Shown here: one piece after another, positions 3,796 to 14,283 of the stretch
Layout of the letters: each line of letters opens with the position of its first letter
Numbering within the stretch: position 1 is the first letter of the stretch
Origin: a virus
Lineage: Duplodnaviria > Caudoviricetes
Reading direction: 5' to 3' (one strand)
Virus record (IMG/VR): IMGVR_UViG_3300020045_001541
Location: 1 to 36,663 of that record
DNA: 36,663 nt
The notes under the pieces: generated by a model
What the model saw: only the letters and a program-made list of their open reading frames with translations
What the model was told of the DNA's origin: nothing
Databases searched by the model: none
Position numbers and translations under genes: made by a program

Positions 3796-4929
3796 ATGTC
3801 AGAAGAAATCAAAGTAATGCTTGAGACTGGTTTGAAAACCGTCGAAGCACAGGTAAAAACAGCACTGGATAACTACAATGCTGAACTGGTAAAGCATGGC
3901 AAAGTTAGCACCGATTTAACTGCTAATGTTGACGATTTATCTGAAAAACTGGCAGAAATGAAGTCGCAATTGGTGGATATTGCCCAGAAACAAGTCCAGT
4001 TGCCAGCTGAGCAGAAGATTATCACGGTTGGTGCTGACTTCATCAAATCAGATGCATTCACTCAGTTGGTTGGTAATCAACGTGAGCGTGTTCGCTATGA
4101 AGTAAAAAACACTGTTTTATCTGACACAACCACTACTTTCCCAACTCAACGCCCTGGTGTTATTCCTGGTAACTTCCTACCAGTGACAATTCGCAGCCGC
4201 ATTCCAACAGTTACCGTTACTGGTAATGCTGTAAATGCTTTGCGCGAAGCGTCAAACACTAACAACGCAGTTGAAGTTGCGCAAGGTGCAAGCAAGCCAG
4301 AATCGGCGGTTACATTTGAACAGTACAATGTACCAATCCAGACTGTAGCGCATTGGATCAAAGTATCAAATCAACTGTTGGCTGATGCTCCTGCGATTGC
4401 GTCATACATCGATACCCGCCTGCGTGATGGATTAGCGCAACGGATCGAACGTCAATTGCTGTTAGGTGATGGCACAACTCCGAACCTATCAGGTCTGACT
4501 GATTCTGGCAACTTCACTGCATTCACCCCGGTAACTGGTGCAAATCTGGCTGATTCTATCAATAAAGCCAAATACGCACTGTGGGCAACCGGTAATGTCG
4601 CCGATACTGTCATTGTTAACCCTGCTGATTGGGCTGCAATGGAGATCGCAAAAGAAACCGGCGGCGCTTACCTGTACGGAACTCCTGGTACTGCAGCTGG
4701 CATGACCCCATTCGGCGTTCAGGTTGTACTGTCTAACCACATGGCAACCGGTTATTTCCTGATTGGTAACCTAATGGGCGCTACCAACATCTTCCAGCGT
4801 CAGGGTACAACCGTTGAAATGGGTTACATCAACGAAGACTTTACTAATAACTTGGTTACCATTCGCGCCGAAGAGCGTTTGGGATTGGCAGTTGACCGCC
4901 CAGCTGCCATTCTGTACGGCACATTCTAA
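3796..4929 (+). CDS. HK97-fold major capsid protein with N-terminal delta (scaffold) domain
   Basis: Coiled-coil N-terminus, AHWIKVSNQLLAD, LLGDG, DFTNNLVTIRAEERL; ATG 3796 follows GAGG. Confidence 0.97.
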   Translation: MSEEIKVMLETGLKTVEAQVKTALDNYNAELVKHGKVSTDLTANVDDLSEKLAEMKSQLVDIAQKQVQLPAEQKIITVGADFIKSDAFTQLVGNQRERVRYEVKNTVLSDTTTTFPTQRPGVIPGNFLPVTIRSRIPTVTVTGNAVNALREASNTNNAVEVAQGASKPESAVTFEQYNVPIQTVAHWIKVSNQLLADAPAIASYIDTRLRDGLAQRIERQLLLGDGTTPNLSGLTDSGNFTAFTPVTGANLADSINKAKYALWATGNVADTVIVNPADWAAMEIAKETGGAYLYGTPGTAAGMTPFGVQVVLSNHMATGYFLIGNLMGATNIFQRQGTTVEMGYINEDFTNNLVTIRAEERLGLAVDRPAAILYGTF

Positions 4930-4948: not shown

Positions 4949-4971
4949 AGGGGCTTGCGCCCCTTTTTTTT
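4949..4971 (+). terminator. Rho-independent terminator after the capsid gene
   Basis: aggggc-ttgc-gcccct followed by a T run. Confidence 0.9.
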
Positions 4972-4982
4972 ATGGTGAATTT

Positions 4983-5207
4983 ATGCTTTATCGAATGAAA
5001 AAGACCTGCTTACATGGCATTCATGGCAAGCTATTAAAAGATCATGAATATGAATTAACTGATTTAGAAGTAGGTGGAATTCTTAGATTTGTCGAACCCG
5101 TCGAGGTGCGGGGGATCCCTTTTCCGTTAGAGATTCAAAAAGATTCGTCATTATTGCCAGTGGCCCCAGTCTTACAAAGCAAGACACAGAAACGGCGCGC
5201 AAAATAG
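4983..5207 (+). CDS. Small post-capsid protein with a basic C-terminus; zero-frame product of a putative frameshift gene
   Basis: GGTGA RBS, position after the capsid gene, contains in-phase C_CCT_TTT. Confidence 0.75.
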   Translation: MLYRMKKTCLHGIHGKLLKDHEYELTDLEVGGILRFVEPVEVRGIPFPLEIQKDSSLLPVAPVLQSKTQKRRAK

Positions 5208-5719
5208 GCAAGATCATCACAATAAACAGCTCAATATTTCTAGATGGTTATTCAGATATTCATTACGCCTGTGATCATCGTTGGTGGGCCGAGTATCACC
5301 GGCAGATAAAAGATCATAAATGCCTAAAAATAACTCCAAGCGCGAAGGCTGCCGAAGAATTTAAACTTGAATCAATCAAGGCGGAGTACGGTCGCGGGCT
5401 AAATAAGAAGGCATGGACGGTTAATTGCGGGATGAATAGTGGTTATCAGGCCATAAATCTAGCTTATCACCTTGGCGCGAAAGAGATTTACCTGCTAGGT
5501 TTTGATATGCAGCGCACTGGAGGACAATCTCACTTCCATGGCGATCACCCTAATGGGTGGGCAAATGGCGGAGATTATGCTGATTGGTGTAAAAGATTGG
5601 CTGAATTATCATCAGATCTTAGAGTTGAAGACGTCAAAGTGGTAAACTGTAGCCGTGAAACCGCGCTTGAATGCTTTGAGCGATCAACAATTGATGAGGT
5701 GTTTAGATGTCTGATTTAA
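5087..5719 (+). CDS. Maf/DUF115/MptE-like (sialyltransferase-related fold) transferase domain; no canonical start before its N-terminal motif; predicted 245-aa fusion with 4983..5123
   Basis: Stop-free frame from 5087 encodes VIIASGPSL...ITINSS...YACDHRWW...NSGYQAINLAYHLGAKEIYLLGFDM...HFHG; first ATG/GTG/TTG is at 5432. Confidence 0.75.
   Translation: MCRTRRGAGDPFSVRDSKRFVIIASGPSLTKQDTETARKIGKIITINSSIFLDGYSDIHYACDHRWWAEYHRQIKDHKCLKITPSAKAAEEFKLESIKAEYGRGLNKKAWTVNCGMNSGYQAINLAYHLGAKEIYLLGFDMQRTGGQSHFHGDHPNGWANGGDYADWCKRLAELSSDLRVEDVKVVNCSRETALECFERSTIDEVFRCLI
5117..5123 (+). other. Putative -1 ribosomal frameshift site C_CCT_TTT
   Basis: X_XXY_YYZ heptamer in phase with ORF 4983; the -1 frame is open to 5719; GAGG lies 10 nt upstream. 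Confidence 0.7.
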
Positions 5720-6393
5720 CATATCCAGTACTAGATAATGCGACATTTAAACGGCTTATTGATATGGGTGATGGAACTCATGCCGAAGTAATGGTGATGA
5801 TTAGTGATGATGGCAGGCCGGTATTGGTAGCCTTACCTCCAGCATTGCTAACTGACAACGGCGGGCCACATCAGCGCCTGCGGGTTGACACCGGTCAAAC
5901 TGGTTTTTTTGACGGTCGCCAATTTCGTATCAGCTTTGAGCTGACAATTACTGCAACACCAATCTGGGTTAAATTAGTTAGTCCGATAGATTTCATTCTA
6001 CAGTCGCAGACGTTTACCTGTGATCATGGCGGCTATAAGTTCACAGCATACCGGGCATCGCAAGGCACACCATCCGGCACATTTAATCAGCCAATCGACG
6101 TGTGGCAAAATAATTTTATGTCTGAGGCTCCGACATTCACCAATCCAATCACTTTCAACTATGGCGGATCATTCACCCCAACTGTTGGACAAAAACCAAC
6201 CGAGACAGAGCGAATGCTTGCAAATCTTGGTGGTGCTGCCCCATCATCTGGAAGCCCAAATACCGTTGGCGGTGATTCGGCTGGTGAACGCGGGTTGCCT
6301 GCTGGCACTTATTACCTTGGCTTTGCGCGCCTGCCAGATTCCACCGTAGATGCGCAAGGCGTTTGGTCACTAATATTTGAGTGCAGAGAATGA
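5707..6393 (+). CDS. Hypothetical beta-rich protein, possible virion or decoration protein
   Basis: 228-aa ORF with GAGG RBS, G/S/T/P-rich, overlaps both neighbours. Confidence 0.6.
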   Translation: MSDLTYPVLDNATFKRLIDMGDGTHAEVMVMISDDGRPVLVALPPALLTDNGGPHQRLRVDTGQTGFFDGRQFRISFELTITATPIWVKLVSPIDFILQSQTFTCDHGGYKFTAYRASQGTPSGTFNQPIDVWQNNFMSEAPTFTNPITFNYGGSFTPTVGQKPTETERMLANLGGAAPSSGSPNTVGGDSAGERGLPAGTYYLGFARLPDSTVDAQGVWSLIFECRE

Positions 6394-7214
6394 TTATTCA
6401 ATCAATGAAAGGTCTTGGCGACAACATTCTGCAGCGCGCATTTGTTAAATCCACAAGCCAGCCGGTTTACCTTGATACTCCATGGCCTGAATTATATTCA
6501 GATCTTCAAAATGTTCATTTTACGAAGCCATCAACAATGCTTAGGACACAGCACAAGAACATCTGCCGACAGCATATACAATGGGAAAGCATTCCAGTTG
6601 GTCATGCAATGAAACGAATATCATACGGAAATCAAGGTATGTTTCACGGTATGCGCCAAGCATTCGGCTTTGATCCTGTAAAAATGGATCTGCCTGATTT
6701 CGGTGTATCACTATACGACAGTCCTTATGTAGTTGTTCGCCCGGTAACCGTCCGCAGTGAGTGGCGCGCAGATTCACGCAATCCAAAAATAGGATATGTG
6801 ACGAAAGTCGCAGAATTGGCGAAACAGTTAGGCTATCTTGTTATCAGTGTTGCTGATTTAGAAGATGGAAAGGAATGGGCTTTAGAGATCCCGCCGTCAG
6901 ACATTCAGTTTCACCGTGGAGAATTAACGGTATCGCAACTGCTAAATCTCACGCAAAATGCAAGTGCGCTGATTGGCGGTATAGGTTGGATTGTTCCGGC
7001 TTCTATGGCGCAGAATGTACCAGCATTTATCGTGTGCGGCGGGCAAGGGCAATACAATCACCCAAGTAAGATTACTGACTCACTACAACAGCACAGAATC
7101 ACGTTTGCAATGCCAGATAAATTTTGCATGTGCGCAACAGCACAGCATGACTGTAATAAGGAAATCAGCAATTTTGATGAGCTGGTTAATAAATTTTTTG
7201 AGGAGATAAAATGA
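6390..7214 (+). CDS. GT-B glycosyltransferase, GT9/heptosyltransferase-like
   Basis: N-terminal GLGDNI, YVVVRP...RNP, ASALIGGIGW...A-NVPAFIV, C-terminal Cys cluster; ATGA overlap. Confidence 0.72.
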   Translation: MIIQSMKGLGDNILQRAFVKSTSQPVYLDTPWPELYSDLQNVHFTKPSTMLRTQHKNICRQHIQWESIPVGHAMKRISYGNQGMFHGMRQAFGFDPVKMDLPDFGVSLYDSPYVVVRPVTVRSEWRADSRNPKIGYVTKVAELAKQLGYLVISVADLEDGKEWALEIPPSDIQFHRGELTVSQLLNLTQNASALIGGIGWIVPASMAQNVPAFIVCGGQGQYNHPSKITDSLQQHRITFAMPDKFCMCATAQHDCNKEISNFDELVNKFFEEIK

Positions 7215-7429
7215 AGCTACATCACATAAAAGAAATGATGATTCATAGCATAAAAAAAGGAGATGTAATGGTTGTTAAATTGCCATCATCACCATCTCAA
7301 TGTGATATGCGAAGAATGCGCGATCAGATAATGAGCATCACAAAAGATTGTGGATTGGTTGATGTGATCTTTGTTGATAAAAATACTGATATTGAATTTA
7401 TTCGGAGCGAAGAAAATGATCATTCCTGA
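7211..7429 (+). CDS. Small hypothetical protein
   Basis: Strong GAGGAG RBS, overlaps neighbours. Confidence 0.65.
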   Translation: MKLHHIKEMMIHSIKKGDVMVVKLPSSPSQCDMRRMRDQIMSITKDCGLVDVIFVDKNTDIEFIRSEENDHS

Positions 7430-8024
7430 TTCATTCAAAGATACACTGGTATGGTCTGATAAGCTTGGCTATGGATTCCATACCAGGCCACCGATGGAAT
7501 ACGAAACAAGCTATTTTAACTCATACCAGCTGAGAGACCGCAGCGTTGTCGGTAAGTTGCTAACAGAGGCCCGCATCAAGCTAGTGCGCGATCACTATGA
7601 TGGCGTAGTGTGTGATATCGGTATCGGTGGCGGGCGCTTTGTCGAAGAGATTGACGGTGTAGGCTATGACGTCTGCAATGTTGCCGTTGATTGGCTTAAG
7701 CATAACGGCAGATATTGGAATCCGTATGATCATGATTGCGAAGCGATCACCTGTTGGGATAGCTTAGAGCATATTCCAGAACCTGAAAAGCTGCTCGCTA
7801 AAGTATCGAAGTTTGTTTTCGTATCGATGCCGATTTATACAAGTTCAATGGACTGCTTAAAGTCGAAACACTACAAGCCAGGCGAGCATCTTCACTACTT
7901 CACAGCCTGCGGCCTGAAACTATTCATGCGCAATAATGGCTTTGATCAGATTGCGTCAAGTGGAATTGAAAGCGAACTTGGTCGTGATAGCGTTTTATCT
8001 TTCGTGTTTAAGCGTAAAGTGTGA
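7416..8024 (+). CDS. Class I SAM-dependent methyltransferase (small-molecule/glycan type)
   Basis: DIGIGGG motif I, GYD motif, ITCWDSLEHIPEP and EHLHYFT; no DPPY/NPPY or PC motif. Confidence 0.88.
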   Translation: MIIPDSFKDTLVWSDKLGYGFHTRPPMEYETSYFNSYQLRDRSVVGKLLTEARIKLVRDHYDGVVCDIGIGGGRFVEEIDGVGYDVCNVAVDWLKHNGRYWNPYDHDCEAITCWDSLEHIPEPEKLLAKVSKFVFVSMPIYTSSMDCLKSKHYKPGEHLHYFTACGLKLFMRNNGFDQIASSGIESELGRDSVLSFVFKRKV

Positions 8025-8088: not shown

Positions 8089-8286
8089 ATGAGTAAAACA
8101 ATAAAATTTTGGTGCGATTCTGGCGCAAATATACACTCATGCAAAAGAGGAGAGATAACTACTGATGAGCTTGGGTTTTCTGATTGCGAGTGGGATGAAA
8201 TTCCAGAAGAAGAAAAAGAAGAAATAATGAAAGAATATGCTCTTGATGGCCTTGATTGGGGATGGGTGGAGGAAAATAAAAAATGA
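8089..8286 (+). CDS. Small acidic hypothetical protein (moron)
   Basis: AGGAG RBS, D/E/W-rich 65 aa. Confidence 0.8.
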   Translation: MSKTIKFWCDSGANIHSCKRGEITTDELGFSDCEWDEIPEEEKEEIMKEYALDGLDWGWVEENKK

Positions 8287-8396
8287 AATACTCAGATCTG
8301 ACAATCGAAGAAGCTATTGTTTTATACATGCAAAATAATGCGCAAGTGCAATGTGACGGCGATATGCAAGTGGCCTATTTTGAGTTTGAATTCTAA
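8283..8396 (+). CDS. 37-aa hypothetical peptide (not in the ORF track)
   Basis: MKYSDLTIEEAIVLY...; GGAGG RBS; coupled to both neighbours. Confidence 0.6.
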   Translation: MKYSDLTIEEAIVLYMQNNAQVQCDGDMQVAYFEFEF

Positions 8397-8602
8397 TGAG
8401 CGGATTCTATCACCGGCCACCGTCACCGGTAATGACGGTAAAACTCTGCAATCAGATGATCCACTGTAACGATTATTACATAAATATTTATCGTGAGCGG
8501 TTGGAACATGGGTATGACAGAGAGATAAATAAAGCAAGACTTGCTGAGTACGAAAAAGAAAATAAGAGATTGAATGAATGGCTACAGGAGAATGATAAAT
8601 GA
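8396..8602 (+). CDS. Hypothetical protein (moron)
   Basis: TAATG coupling, fills the operon. Confidence 0.6.
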   Translation: MSGFYHRPPSPVMTVKLCNQMIHCNDYYINIYRERLEHGYDREINKARLAEYEKENKRLNEWLQENDK

Positions 8603-9138
8603 AAAAACACATACACATACCAGTTTTCGGACCGCAAGAATTGTTTAATGGAGTTCCTGATTATGTTGAATTTATCAGATTCAATGATTACTCGAGAGAT
8701 TATTTATGGGGTGATTCAAACTCAATAAATCATTTAGGATTTAGAGATTTAAAAGCAATACCAATCGTCGCCATGCGCCGAATCGAAGAAATAGAAAATC
8801 AACCCACAGTAAATCCAGAGCCTAAAAGCTGGACAGTGGAAGACCAGAAGGCCGGGCGATTGCCGGAGGTTGGGGTTGAATTTCAAACTAGCACAGGGAA
8901 AAGAAAGTGCGTTATCACAGAAGGTAAATTCATTTTTACAGTGAACGACGATGTTGTAGAAGTTTACACAATAGAAAGCGCTATGCCAGTAGAAACACCA
9001 GAAGACAAATTTGTTAGATCATTTGTTGAGATAAACAAACAAACAGTTAAGGCTGAAATTTCTGAAAGCACAGTAAGGGAATTATATAGAGCAATTAGAG
9101 ACGGAAAGCTAAGCGTTACCCCGATAGTTTATAGATAA
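8599..9138 (+). CDS. Hypothetical protein (moron)
   Basis: AGGAG RBS, 179 aa. Confidence 0.75.
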   Translation: MKKHIHIPVFGPQELFNGVPDYVEFIRFNDYSRDYLWGDSNSINHLGFRDLKAIPIVAMRRIEEIENQPTVNPEPKSWTVEDQKAGRLPEVGVEFQTSTGKRKCVITEGKFIFTVNDDVVEVYTIESAMPVETPEDKFVRSFVEINKQTVKAEISESTVRELYRAIRDGKLSVTPIVYR

Positions 9139-11387: not shown

Positions 11388-11774
11388 ATGTCAACAATCA
11401 CACGCGATCAATTTATTTCAGCAGGTAATTATAAATCATTTGATGTTGATGGTTTTGGTTCTGTTCGAATCAAAGCTCTACCTGTGAAAGAGCGCTTTGT
11501 CATTATTGGCAAGCACATGGATATAGGAAAATCAGATGCCGGCTCAGTTGATAAGGTGCTAATGACTACCGATGCGCAAATCTACATGATCGCAAAATCA
11601 CTTGTTGATGGTGATGGCAATTACTTGTTTGATGCAAATAACCAAGGCGATCTTGATCTGATTGCAGCTAAGGATGAAGAGTTTCTTGGCAGATTGGTTG
11701 ATGAGATCACTGTGTTCAATCGCTTTGCAACCAACAAAGGCGAGGACAGCACAGAGGATGCAGCAAAAAACTAA
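11388..11774 (+). CDS. Tail assembly chaperone (gpG-like)
   Basis: Lies between tube and tape measure genes; ends GCA AAA AAC TAA. Confidence 0.88.
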   Translation: MSTITRDQFISAGNYKSFDVDGFGSVRIKALPVKERFVIIGKHMDIGKSDAGSVDKVLMTTDAQIYMIAKSLVDGDGNYLFDANNQGDLDLIAAKDEEFLGRLVDEITVFNRFATNKGEDSTEDAAKN

Positions 11775-11983
11775 GGCGGCGAGCTGAAAGGTTTTTTCTT
11801 TTCAAACTCGCCAGAGATCTAGGAAAGTCAGCTGCAGAAGTTGAGCAAAATATAACGTCATCCGAGTTTGTGGAATGGATGGCGTTTTATCAAATTGAAT
11901 ACGAATACAAAACAGATACAGCTCCACCTATCGAATACGACGATCCAAGAGAACAAGACGCAGCAATAGACGCGCTATTTTAA
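11765..11983 (+). CDS. Tail chaperone -1 frameshift extension (gpT-like) from A_AAA_AAC
   Basis: The -1 frame reads KLRRRAERFFLFKLARDLGKS...SSEFVEWMAFY...DALF* and fills the gap before the tape measure gene. Confidence 0.9.
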   Translation, partial: KKLRRRAERFFLFKLARDLGKSAAEVEQNITSSEFVEWMAFYQIEYEYKTDTAPPIEYDDPREQDAAIDALF

Positions 11984-11994
11984 AGGACAAGGCC

Positions 11995-14283
11995 ATGTCA
12001 CTGGGTACACTAACAATCGATCTGGCTGCTAACGTAGCGCGACTAACTAGCGATCTTGGCAGGGCTAATAGAATAGCAGAGCAATCAGCATCGCAAATGC
12101 AAAAGCGATTCGATCAGCTAAAAGCAGGAATCGGCGCTCTATTTGCAGGGTTATCTGTTGGTGCTTTTTCTTCATGGATTAAGCAGTCAATTGACGCAGC
12201 CGACGAGATAAACGATCTATCTGTAAAGCTTGGGATTAGCGCGCAATCATTGCAGGCATGGGGCTATGCTGCGCAAATGTCAGGCGGAAGTATGGAGGTT
12301 GTATCTAGCGCGCTAAAAAAACTAAATTTAGATATATCAGATGCCGCCAATGGATCGGTATCAGCATCGGAGAAATTCAGTTCGATAGGGGTTTCAATAA
12401 CAGATGCTAATGGCAAATTAAAATCAGCAGACCAAGTTCTGCTTGAAATTTCGGATAGATTTTCCGCTACCGCTGATGACGCAAATAAAACCGCTGTTGC
12501 TGTTGATATTTTCGGAAAATCAGGCGCCGATATGATCCCAACTCTTAATGCTGGTAGCGATGCGCTATTGGAGTTAATGAATCAAGCAAGGCAGTTTGGC
12601 CTTGTAATGAGCAATGAAGCAATACAGAATGCGGCAAGCTTCAACGACTCGCTTGATATGCTATCAGAAGTAAGCAGGGGATATTCTAATCAGCTTGCAA
12701 CAGCATTACTGCCAGCGCTAAACACCCTTGCTGGATATTTAATTGACGCGTCAACAAGTTCCGATACTGCAACTGATTCTATGGGTAAACTTGATGCGGT
12801 ATTGCGCGGCTTAATTATATCCGGTGTGTCTGTCGGGTTGGCCTTTAGGCGTGTCGGAAATGCAATAGGCGCAACTGCCGCCGCAGCTGTAATGGCGGCT
12901 CAGGGTGAATTCTCAAAAGCTGCAGATATCGCGACAATGTCCCAAGAAGATAGCGCGAAAGATATTGAAGATACACTAAAAAGAATATCTTCAACTTGGG
13001 ATGGTACATATCAAAAGATGGGCGAAAAGGCTGCCGAAGTAAGCGGAAAGATTAAGCCATCAATAAAGAGTATATCAGGCGCACAGGGCGAACTTACTGA
13101 GCTAACCAAAAAGCACGCTGCGGAGATTGCTGGTGTTACTGACAAGCAATATTCGTACAATCAAAAAATATCAGAGCTAAAAACACTGCTTGGATCAGGG
13201 AAGATATCGCAAGAGAATTACGCTAAGGCAGTAAGCGCTGCCGGTGCAGAATTAAATAAAACATCAAAAAATGCTGACTCTGCCGCATCAACAGCTAAAC
13301 GCCATGCAGAAGCCATCGCCAGCGAAATACAGCAGCTCGAATACAAAGCAGCTATCCTAGGCATGACTGATACACAAACTGAGCTTTATAAGTTATCAAC
13401 CGATGGCGCTACTCAGTCACAAATAAAACACGCAAAAACATTACTTGATCAGGTTGAGGCTTTCGAGAAAGACAAAAAAGCAAAAGAAGACTCGACAAAA
13501 TACCAAGAAGATCTGAATGATAAAATGCGACAATATGATGAGTTAATCACTGGCGCAAAATCTGGAACTACAGAATTCGGCGACACGCTACACGATCTAA
13601 ATGAGCTGCTAAAAGCAAATAAGATCAGTCAAGATGAATACAACGCAGCGGTAGGGCGACTGAATAAGAAGTATGAAGATGCAGGCAAGGCCGCTATAGA
13701 CTGGAGCAAAATCCAAGAGGGCGCGCTGGATGCTGGCCGCGATTCACTAGCGGACTTCCTGTACGATCCATTTGAAGGCGGCATAGAAGGAATGGTTGAT
13801 AACTTCACCATTGCTTTGAGAAAAATGGCTGCGCAGGCTGCTGCTGCTGGCATAATGGAAGAGGTTTTCAGCAAGGATAACATGGCATCAATAACGTCAT
13901 GGTTTAGCTCTATGATGGGTGCCGCAAGTAGCTCTGGCGGCTCCTCATCATCGTCAACTGGTTCCGGCATGGCTAGCATGATTGGCGCGATAGGTTCGAT
14001 GTTTAGCTTTGACGGTGGCGGCTTTACTGGATCCGGCGCTAGATCTGGTGGCTTGGACGGTAAGGGCGGATTCGTTGCCATGATTCATCCAAACGAAGAA
14101 ATCATTGATTACACAAAACCGGTGTATAATTCAGCAAAGGAAAGCTCATCTCGCGCGTCTGGACGAACCACTATCAACCAAGTTATAAATACTCAGGGTA
14201 GAATAGATAATCGCACCAGCAATCAGATAGCGACTGATACCGCAAGAAAACAGCGGCTGGCTCGCTCACGGTTAGGGGGTTAA
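11995..14283 (+). CDS. Tail tape measure protein
   Basis: SLGTLTIDL start, 762 aa, Ala-rich helical, C-terminal FDGGGFTG. Confidence 0.95.
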   Translation: MSLGTLTIDLAANVARLTSDLGRANRIAEQSASQMQKRFDQLKAGIGALFAGLSVGAFSSWIKQSIDAADEINDLSVKLGISAQSLQAWGYAAQMSGGSMEVVSSALKKLNLDISDAANGSVSASEKFSSIGVSITDANGKLKSADQVLLEISDRFSATADDANKTAVAVDIFGKSGADMIPTLNAGSDALLELMNQARQFGLVMSNEAIQNAASFNDSLDMLSEVSRGYSNQLATALLPALNTLAGYLIDASTSSDTATDSMGKLDAVLRGLIISGVSVGLAFRRVGNAIGATAAAAVMAAQGEFSKAADIATMSQEDSAKDIEDTLKRISSTWDGTYQKMGEKAAEVSGKIKPSIKSISGAQGELTELTKKHAAEIAGVTDKQYSYNQKISELKTLLGSGKISQENYAKAVSAAGAELNKTSKNADSAASTAKRHAEAIASEIQQLEYKAAILGMTDTQTELYKLSTDGATQSQIKHAKTLLDQVEAFEKDKKAKEDSTKYQEDLNDKMRQYDELITGAKSGTTEFGDTLHDLNELLKANKISQDEYNAAVGRLNKKYEDAGKAAIDWSKIQEGALDAGRDSLADFLYDPFEGGIEGMVDNFTIALRKMAAQAAAAGIMEEVFSKDNMASITSWFSSMMGAASSSGGSSSSSTGSGMASMIGAIGSMFSFDGGGFTGSGARSGGLDGKGGFVAMIHPNEEIIDYTKPVYNSAKESSSRASGRTTINQVINTQGRIDNRTSNQIATDTARKQRLARSRLGG

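Follow-up and report, generated by a model that had tools for sequence, protein, structure and literature searches.

A probable -1 frameshift that would join a small post-capsid domain to a Maf/sialyltransferase-like enzyme in HK97-type phages

Programmed frameshifts in phage structural genes are known to produce tail chaperones and to extend capsid and tail proteins, mostly with Ig-like domains (available portions of PMC5009743 and PMC10885494). Coat or tail proteins are extended in this way in T3/T7 (gene 10), in Lactobacillus phage A2 and in Listeria phages A118, A500, and PSA (PMC5009743, available text). These systems resemble the locus described here in their position in a late structural operon, in their two products with a common N-terminus, in the Pro codon found at several of the shift sites, and in the existence of relatives that decode the extension in frame. 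They differ in that the major capsid or tail protein itself is extended, whereas here a separate small post-capsid gene would shift and thereby append an enzyme fold. The lambda gpG/gpGT tail-assembly chaperone provides a second parallel, since its -1 shift occurs at variable X_XXY_YYZ heptamers that are conserved by position and not by sequence across divergent phages (PMC5009743, same portion). However, it involves other, non-homologous genes in the tail module and not the head module, and its extension is not a transferase fold. The accessible part of PMC11445458 held nothing informative on phage structural-gene frameshifts, and a literature search that covered few subscription journals found no description of the frameshift considered here. 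Glycosylation of phage capsids is also known: it has been reported for mycobacteriophages including Che8, where phage-encoded glycosyltransferases are proposed or shown to modify the capsid (second-hand in PMC11256854). The host phylum is a different one, and the available text of that source mentions no frameshift-made, domain-tethered enzyme.

The stretch of DNA analyzed here, hereafter the window, is a virus record of 36.7 kb (36,663 nucleotides) whose head module is of the HK97 type (Table 1). Behind the capsid gene, a terminator-like hairpin that would reduce the expression of downstream genes precedes a small ORF, which overlaps a long frame without a start codon. As the original prediction had it, this second frame is stop-free and has no ATG, GTG, or TTG ahead of its ASGPSL motif; it runs for 210 codons after the TAG at 5084-5086, and 23 codons lie before the motif. 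The 95-aa ORF annotated at 5432 was likewise correctly described as a C-terminal half: it covers half the domain, because PF01973 and phrog_4603 match the whole frame, the latter from profile position 1 (E 6.7e-48). Codon positions place the heptamer C_CCT_TTT within the small ORF in exactly the phase needed for a -1 shift, with CCT (5118-5120) and TTT (5121-5123) as the zero-frame codons, and the GAGG at 5103-5106 ends 10 nt upstream; all coordinates given earlier for these elements hold. A -1 shift at the heptamer would give a fusion of 47 + 198 = 245 aa. Pro46 and Phe47 of the small ORF are invariant in six of six close relatives. The five closest small-ORF relatives are P0123-P0127; single-protein searches found no close relatives in viral contigs. 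One heptamer within 23 codons would be weak evidence if it stood alone.

Table 1. Features of the head-module region of the window that bear on the predicted frameshift.
Feature	Position	Strand	Basis
Major capsid protein gene, HK97-type (upstream context)	3796..4929	+	PF05065 E 8.5e-45; phrog_10 major head protein
Terminator-like hairpin and T run between capsid gene and small ORF	4949..4971	+	Sequence; annotated terminator at the same place in PMG1
Zero-frame ORF, 74 aa: small domain of ~43 aa, linker, basic tail overlapping the enzyme frame	4983..5207	+	HMM, model
SD-like GAGGTG, predicted stimulator	5103..5108	+	Sequence; family enrichment
Slippery site C_CCT_TTT (Pro-Phe), predicted -1 shift	5117..5123	+	Sequence; homologue comparison
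Start-less -1 frame; from 5123, 198-aa Maf/GT42-like transferase part of the predicted 245-aa fusion	5087..5719	+	PF01973; phrog_4603; model
228-aa gene, phrog_13935	5707..6393	+	phrog match
GT9/TibC-like (GT-B) glycosyltransferase, cassette partner	6390..7214	+	Atlas GT9 cluster score 0.97, TM 0.76
SAM-dependent methyltransferase, cassette partner	7371..8024	+	PF13489 E 3.4e-10

The conservation of this layout was examined in homologues picked by the enzyme. From 217 sequences (eight annotated phages, 208 fetched loci, and the window), ten without a recognizable motif were dropped, and the remaining 207 formed 135 clusters at 70% identity. With the window set aside, 55 clusters carried the small domain within 400 nt upstream of the enzyme and 73 had neither a small domain nor a capsid gene; six ambiguous clusters were left out. 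The enzyme lies in the -1 register relative to the small domain in 53 of the 55, in frame in one, and in the third frame in one. Since the small-domain HMM behind this count was itself seeded from such post-capsid ORFs, the register was also counted in clusters outside the seed set, where it was -1 in 25 of 27. Among the 53 clusters, the zero-frame ORF extends past the first motif of the enzyme in 51, the whole open frame lacks ATG, GTG, and TTG in 44, and no start follows the small domain in 49, compared with eight of the 73 clusters lacking the small domain and capsid gene. An in-phase heptamer is present in 41 of the 53, versus nine and three in the other two phases, and resampling of synonymous codons with the zero-frame protein kept gave a mean of 10.7 and a maximum of 20 in 1000 trials; the heptamers are therefore in phase more often than expected by chance. 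Both the heptamer and the missing start, whose conservation in homologous loci the original prediction had proposed as a check, are thus conserved. Sixteen different heptamers are in use. The comparison group, which may include missed cases, has in-phase heptamers in 17 of 73 clusters versus eight and eight. A strict heptamer is absent from 12 of the 53 clusters. Eleven loci in the -1 register without a strict heptamer (L019, L027, L030, L036, L063, L108, L127, L155, L167, L186, and L198) have no start except one far-upstream TTG in L127, and most of them contain in-phase CCC or TTTT runs that suggest single-tRNA slip sites.

Loci picked by the capsid protein alone gave a complementary view. 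The 80 loci fetched in this way yielded 64 parsed post-capsid ORFs, or 36 after de-duplication, of which 19 are directly followed by the enzyme and 17 are not (one of these 17, in L258, is a different protein). The sequence C_CCN, a C before a Pro codon that reads CCC in the -1 frame, occurs at codons 39-66 in 17 of the 19 enzyme-linked ORFs, versus two of the 17 enzyme-less ones (Fisher p 4.7e-6); in these, the -1 frame stays open for just two and seven codons, and several enzyme-less ORFs keep the Pro without the preceding C. The two enzyme-linked exceptions are L293, in which the enzyme is in another register, and L283, which has GCCTTTT and no C_CCN. When the 17 sites are aligned, the residues conserved ahead of the site (Y-E-T-K-V) belong to the zero frame, and the -1 frame is rich in stops there; beyond the site, the conserved residues (P-F-x-G-R-W-x-G-x-T-V-V-C) belong to the -1 frame. 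Because only seven of the 17 sites are full X_XXY_YYZ heptamers, the other ten having C_CCN alone, the minimal signal in this capsid clade is probably a slip of the P-site tRNA-Pro. The heptamer proposed as the driver of the shift is thus present and in phase in the window, but the conserved core in the window's own capsid clade is C_CCN.

An upstream SD-like stimulator, the other element of the original prediction, proved to be a trend of the family. Of 59 sites, 23 have an SD core between -20 and -5 and 36 lack one, and each of two control intervals gives five of 59; synonymous resampling gave an expectation of 14.6, and none of 2000 trials reached 23. No downstream stimulatory hairpin was detected in the window (z -0.25). 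Across the family, counting hairpins only, downstream structure shows a weak trend (mean z -0.83 versus -0.31 in a control interval, p 0.015).

Cultured phages share the layout of the window. In D3 the site is C_CCA_AAG, which is kept in six D3-like records; Psp6 has T_TTT_TTG, and in TvV-S20 a -1-frame stop immediately precedes the site C_CCT_TTG. The public D3-like records (L001 and L297-L301) give three different starts for the enzyme or omit it. The paper on the D3 capsid cryo-EM structure (PMC12749128), in its available text, names no D3 decoration protein at its single mention of "decoration", and a search of that text for "frameshift", "gp7", and "glycosyl" found none of these terms.

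From these comparisons, a programmed -1 ribosomal frameshift very probably makes the fusion, as originally proposed, with strong comparative support. Three other accounts of the broken frame fare much worse. That the break is an assembly indel or a decaying pseudogene is already largely refuted. G5 and T4 runs adjoin the junction, in-frame fusions exist, and a few loci (L261, L262, and L296) have split enzymes. However, contig X1 from an independent run (151 nt, depth 4) aligns without gaps over 5077-5227, where it differs in 15 letters, and 11 listed differences include none within 5117-5123; X1 is one low-depth contig, the SD-like element is near the contig end, and X1 and X2 together cover a minor part of the enzyme gene. 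The register is moreover common to 53 clusters and to cultured phages, and six listed X1 substitutions within the 74-aa ORF (5152, 5161, 5164, 5167, 5170, and 5173) each coincide with a third codon position in the -1 frame. For the same reason, the basic tail that the original prediction had given to the 74-aa product seems to be incidental, a consequence of the frame that it overlaps. Independent initiation of the enzyme at a non-AUG codon, with no frameshift, is improbable. It would use ATT in the window, the first codon of the -1 frame (5087), which has AGGTGG (5072-5077) 9 nt upstream, a configuration that the original prediction had only half noted. In the D3 group it would use the GTG/TTG found 20 codons before the motif, and the PMG1 annotation does start the enzyme at GTG; a canonical or near-cognate start is present at 25 of 42 sites. 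Yet 17 of the 42 sites have neither ATG, GTG, or TTG nor ATT, CTG, ATC, ATA, or ACG, in 18 of 59 only 0-3 codons separate the slip site from the preceding stop, and the enrichment of heptamers and C_CCN would be left unexplained. The D3-group GTG/TTG, for its part, stems from a Leu-Cys pair of the zero frame, and the GAGG upstream of it is missing in two of six records. Still less probable is slippage of RNA polymerase, by which one base would be added to the transcript and no shift would occur on the ribosome. Some sites are indeed homopolymers of A or T with at least 6-7 bases, and the 41 heptamer clusters include ten with AAAAAAG, three with AAAAAAA, and one with TTTTTTT. On the other hand, the window has T4 only, and most sites are mixed (CCCTTTN, GGGAAAN, and AAACCCT) and codon-phased, a phasing that polymerase slippage would not need.

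We next consider the enzyme itself. The 210-aa frame matches PF01973 (Maf/DUF115/MptE-like) with 35.1 bits against a curated cut-off of 34.6, and 71 of 74 homologues match the same family (E up to 0.05). The predicted structure (pLDDT 96.7) retrieved Maf 5MU5 by Foldseek (E 4.7e-4, TM 0.61), followed by CstII (TM 0.54-0.58), and the enzyme profile matched sialyltransferases only in the PDB (best E 0.0015). The CMP-binding motifs GPSL, N, SG, and GxD align with those of CstII (GT42); both fold and motifs were thus found. Of 74 members, 15 weakly matched the Kdo-III transferase WaaZ, with E 1.2e-4 at best. Because the fold and profile matches are to Maf, sialyltransferases, and WaaZ, the donor is likely to be a CMP-ulosonate, and in view of the WaaZ matches, Kdo appears as plausible as sialic acid for the transferred sugar. 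We consider it probable that the sugar transferred by the enzyme is acidic and that its donor is a CMP-sugar, either CMP-Kdo or one with a nonulosonate. The phage enzyme differs from Maf, CstII, and WaaZ in sharing 13-18% identity with them and in being a minimal domain of 190 aa. It has an invariant H130 and a near-invariant H135 after the GxD motif, where the alignment with CstII is loose, and in the HMM alignment the C-terminal His region of CstII has no clear counterpart in the phage enzyme. The CstII residues in question are the catalytic histidine and the lid tyrosines.

The small domain is less easily placed. The window's ORF scored 25.3 bits against an HMM built from the post-capsid ORFs of the capsid-nearest phages, where the best of 1000 shuffles scored 9.2, and by this profile comparison the two are homologous; a broader small-domain HMM did not recognize the window's ORF (-1.7 bits). 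Its model (pLDDT 89) has a fold like GINS-B and the N-terminal part of ribosomal L9 (Z 5.5-4.5). The C-terminal domain of lambda gpFI (PDB 2LSM) ranks below both (Z 4.0, rmsd 1.6 Å over 40 residues) and is a weak Foldseek match (E 3.8, TM 0.54). Pfam gpFI matched none of 66 small-domain members, and DUF7210 and DUF7302 gave no match in the window's ORF and weak matches in four and three of 66 relatives, respectively. Lambda gpFI, whose gene also lies directly after the capsid gene, is alike in gene position and weakly alike in its small fold. It differs in sharing only 2-6% identity and in being scored equally or surpassed by GINS-B and L9-N, and the phage small domain is N-terminal, with either a basic tail or the enzyme behind it. 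In lambda, gpFI bridges the capsid and the terminase (available portions of PMC13595911 and PMC4493119).

In some phages the two domains are joined without a shift. Among 190 proteins of more than 150 aa, five (P0034, P0035, P0112, P0135, and P0151) have the small domain, scoring 10 bits or higher, immediately ahead of the enzyme in a single frame, and P0021, P0038, and P0095 appear by eye to be similar fusions. P0135 adds a GT9-like domain to the pair, and P0151 matches DUF7210 at E 8.4e-6 with 25.6 bits against a cut-off of 27. Two further candidates, L084 and L116, were rejected as off-frame reads of the small ORF. In a FastTree phylogeny of 157 enzyme domains, in which the deep nodes are weak and no order of events can be read, in-frame forms occupy roughly six positions, and many branches carry shifted forms. 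The window's nearest relatives in the tree use AAAAAAG, CCCTTTG, and CCCTTTA (support 0.88).

How the pieces might work together can be sketched as follows. Late read-through past the terminator would lead to synthesis of the small protein, and a part of the ribosomes, pausing at CCU-UUU and aided by the SD-like GAGGUG, would re-pair on CCC-UUU and read on in the enzyme frame; in relatives with C_CCN alone, the P-site tRNA-Pro alone would slip. As the original prediction proposed, the fusion would be rarer than the plain product and could be tethered to the head at a set ratio. Our reading of the locus as a whole, which we somewhat favor, is that a start-less Maf/sialyltransferase-fold frame overlapping the small ORF is expressed by a -1 shift as a fusion beside the 74-aa product, and that the small domain docks the enzyme on the prohead. 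We regard it, by analogy, as an even bet that the small domain attaches to the packaging apparatus or the head shell, which gpFI-CTD is reported to do, and that a few fusions among many plain copies add sugars to head proteins, forming a glycan that the GT9-like enzyme and the methyltransferase would extend or cap. A bolder version can be offered only tentatively and seems rather unlikely: a widespread group of HK97-type phages including D3 would dock a CMP-Kdo-type transferase on the prohead by frameshifting and, with a heptosyltransferase-like enzyme and the methyltransferase, coat the capsid with a glycan that resembles the LPS core and is made from host CMP-Kdo and ADP-heptose, the shift rate setting the ratio of enzyme to capsid.

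The main competitor to prohead docking accepts the frameshift and differs in its purpose. The shift may mainly set a low dose of a late-gene enzyme that acts on the host LPS/LOS core or on another component of the cell or virion, with the small domain as a passenger; we hold this to be possible, though distinctly less likely than docking. The fusion's tether is not required for the enzyme, because many homologues begin at a start codon of their own and lack the small domain, as do 65 of the 73 clusters of comparison group B and most homologues outside the head module (P1 pmgO, PAJU2, and phiNP), the P1 and phiNP copies lying away from the capsid gene. P1 pmgO is non-essential (PMC10695390, in part), and only PmgC and PmgG are named as new virion proteins in the accessible portion of the P1 virion proteome paper (PMC9024508). 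In favor of the docking step, the PAJU2 homologue is a "structural protein", by annotation alone, and capsid glycosylation has been reported for mycobacteriophages (second-hand in PMC11256854). Partners of the WaaZ-like and GT9-like types are LPS-core enzymes, and the small ORF occurs without the enzyme in 17 of the 36 capsid-picked ORFs, which also suits a passenger role. Against the low-dose account, in-frame fusions retain the small domain at the several places in the tree noted above, where deep nodes are poorly supported, and a cassette within the late head module would come at a poor time for remodeling the host surface.

The arrangement is present in the window and in dozens of related phage lineages. 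Phage head modules would thus have a further conserved site of recoding, placed at two genes whose junction is routinely broken in annotation. The extension would be an enzyme fold and not an Ig-like or chaperone domain. As the cultured phage D3 carries the site, both the frameshift and a possible glycosylation of virions by phages of Gram-negative bacteria can be tested directly, and a glycan coat, if real, would bear on phage stability, defense evasion, and antibody recognition.

The genes around the enzyme vary. Loci bearing the GT9-like gene (30 of 30) and the methyltransferase gene (23 of 23) all carry the enzyme as well, counts that are biased because the enzyme served as the query for most of them. 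Many of the long homologues contain a GT9-like domain and the enzyme in one protein; the TibC match of the window's GT9-like product (E 0.14) serves as a lead only. The 228-aa gene that follows the enzyme is probably not part of the cassette because it is also found without the enzyme: the enzyme is present in 16 of 26 loci bearing this gene, and the gene lies near the capsid gene in 22 of 79 capsid-picked loci with or without the enzyme. Promoter-like sequences showed no excess (six versus 8.4 expected).

Cassette content varies widely between phages. A second Maf-like copy is present in L273, L274, L278, and L281 (at capsid +224 and +940 to +1200) and in L237 (+210 and +2013), where methyltransferase-like and other glycosyltransferase-like genes precede the head-tail adaptor. 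In L242, L245, L256, L257, L260, and L284, Cys-rich ORFs, judged by eye to be HNH-like, separate the small ORF/enzyme pair from the capsid gene and push the enzyme to ~880-930 nt downstream. L261, L262, L296, L258, and L259 have an enzyme gene split into two or three parts, which may reflect decay, assembly error, or a second recoding event. In the window, three small ORFs of non-structural appearance occupy 8089-9138 between the methyltransferase gene and the head-tail adaptor (9222), which is unusual inside a head module, and the tail-assembly-chaperone region at 11388-11995, between the major tail and tape-measure genes, is where a G/GT-type frameshift would be expected.
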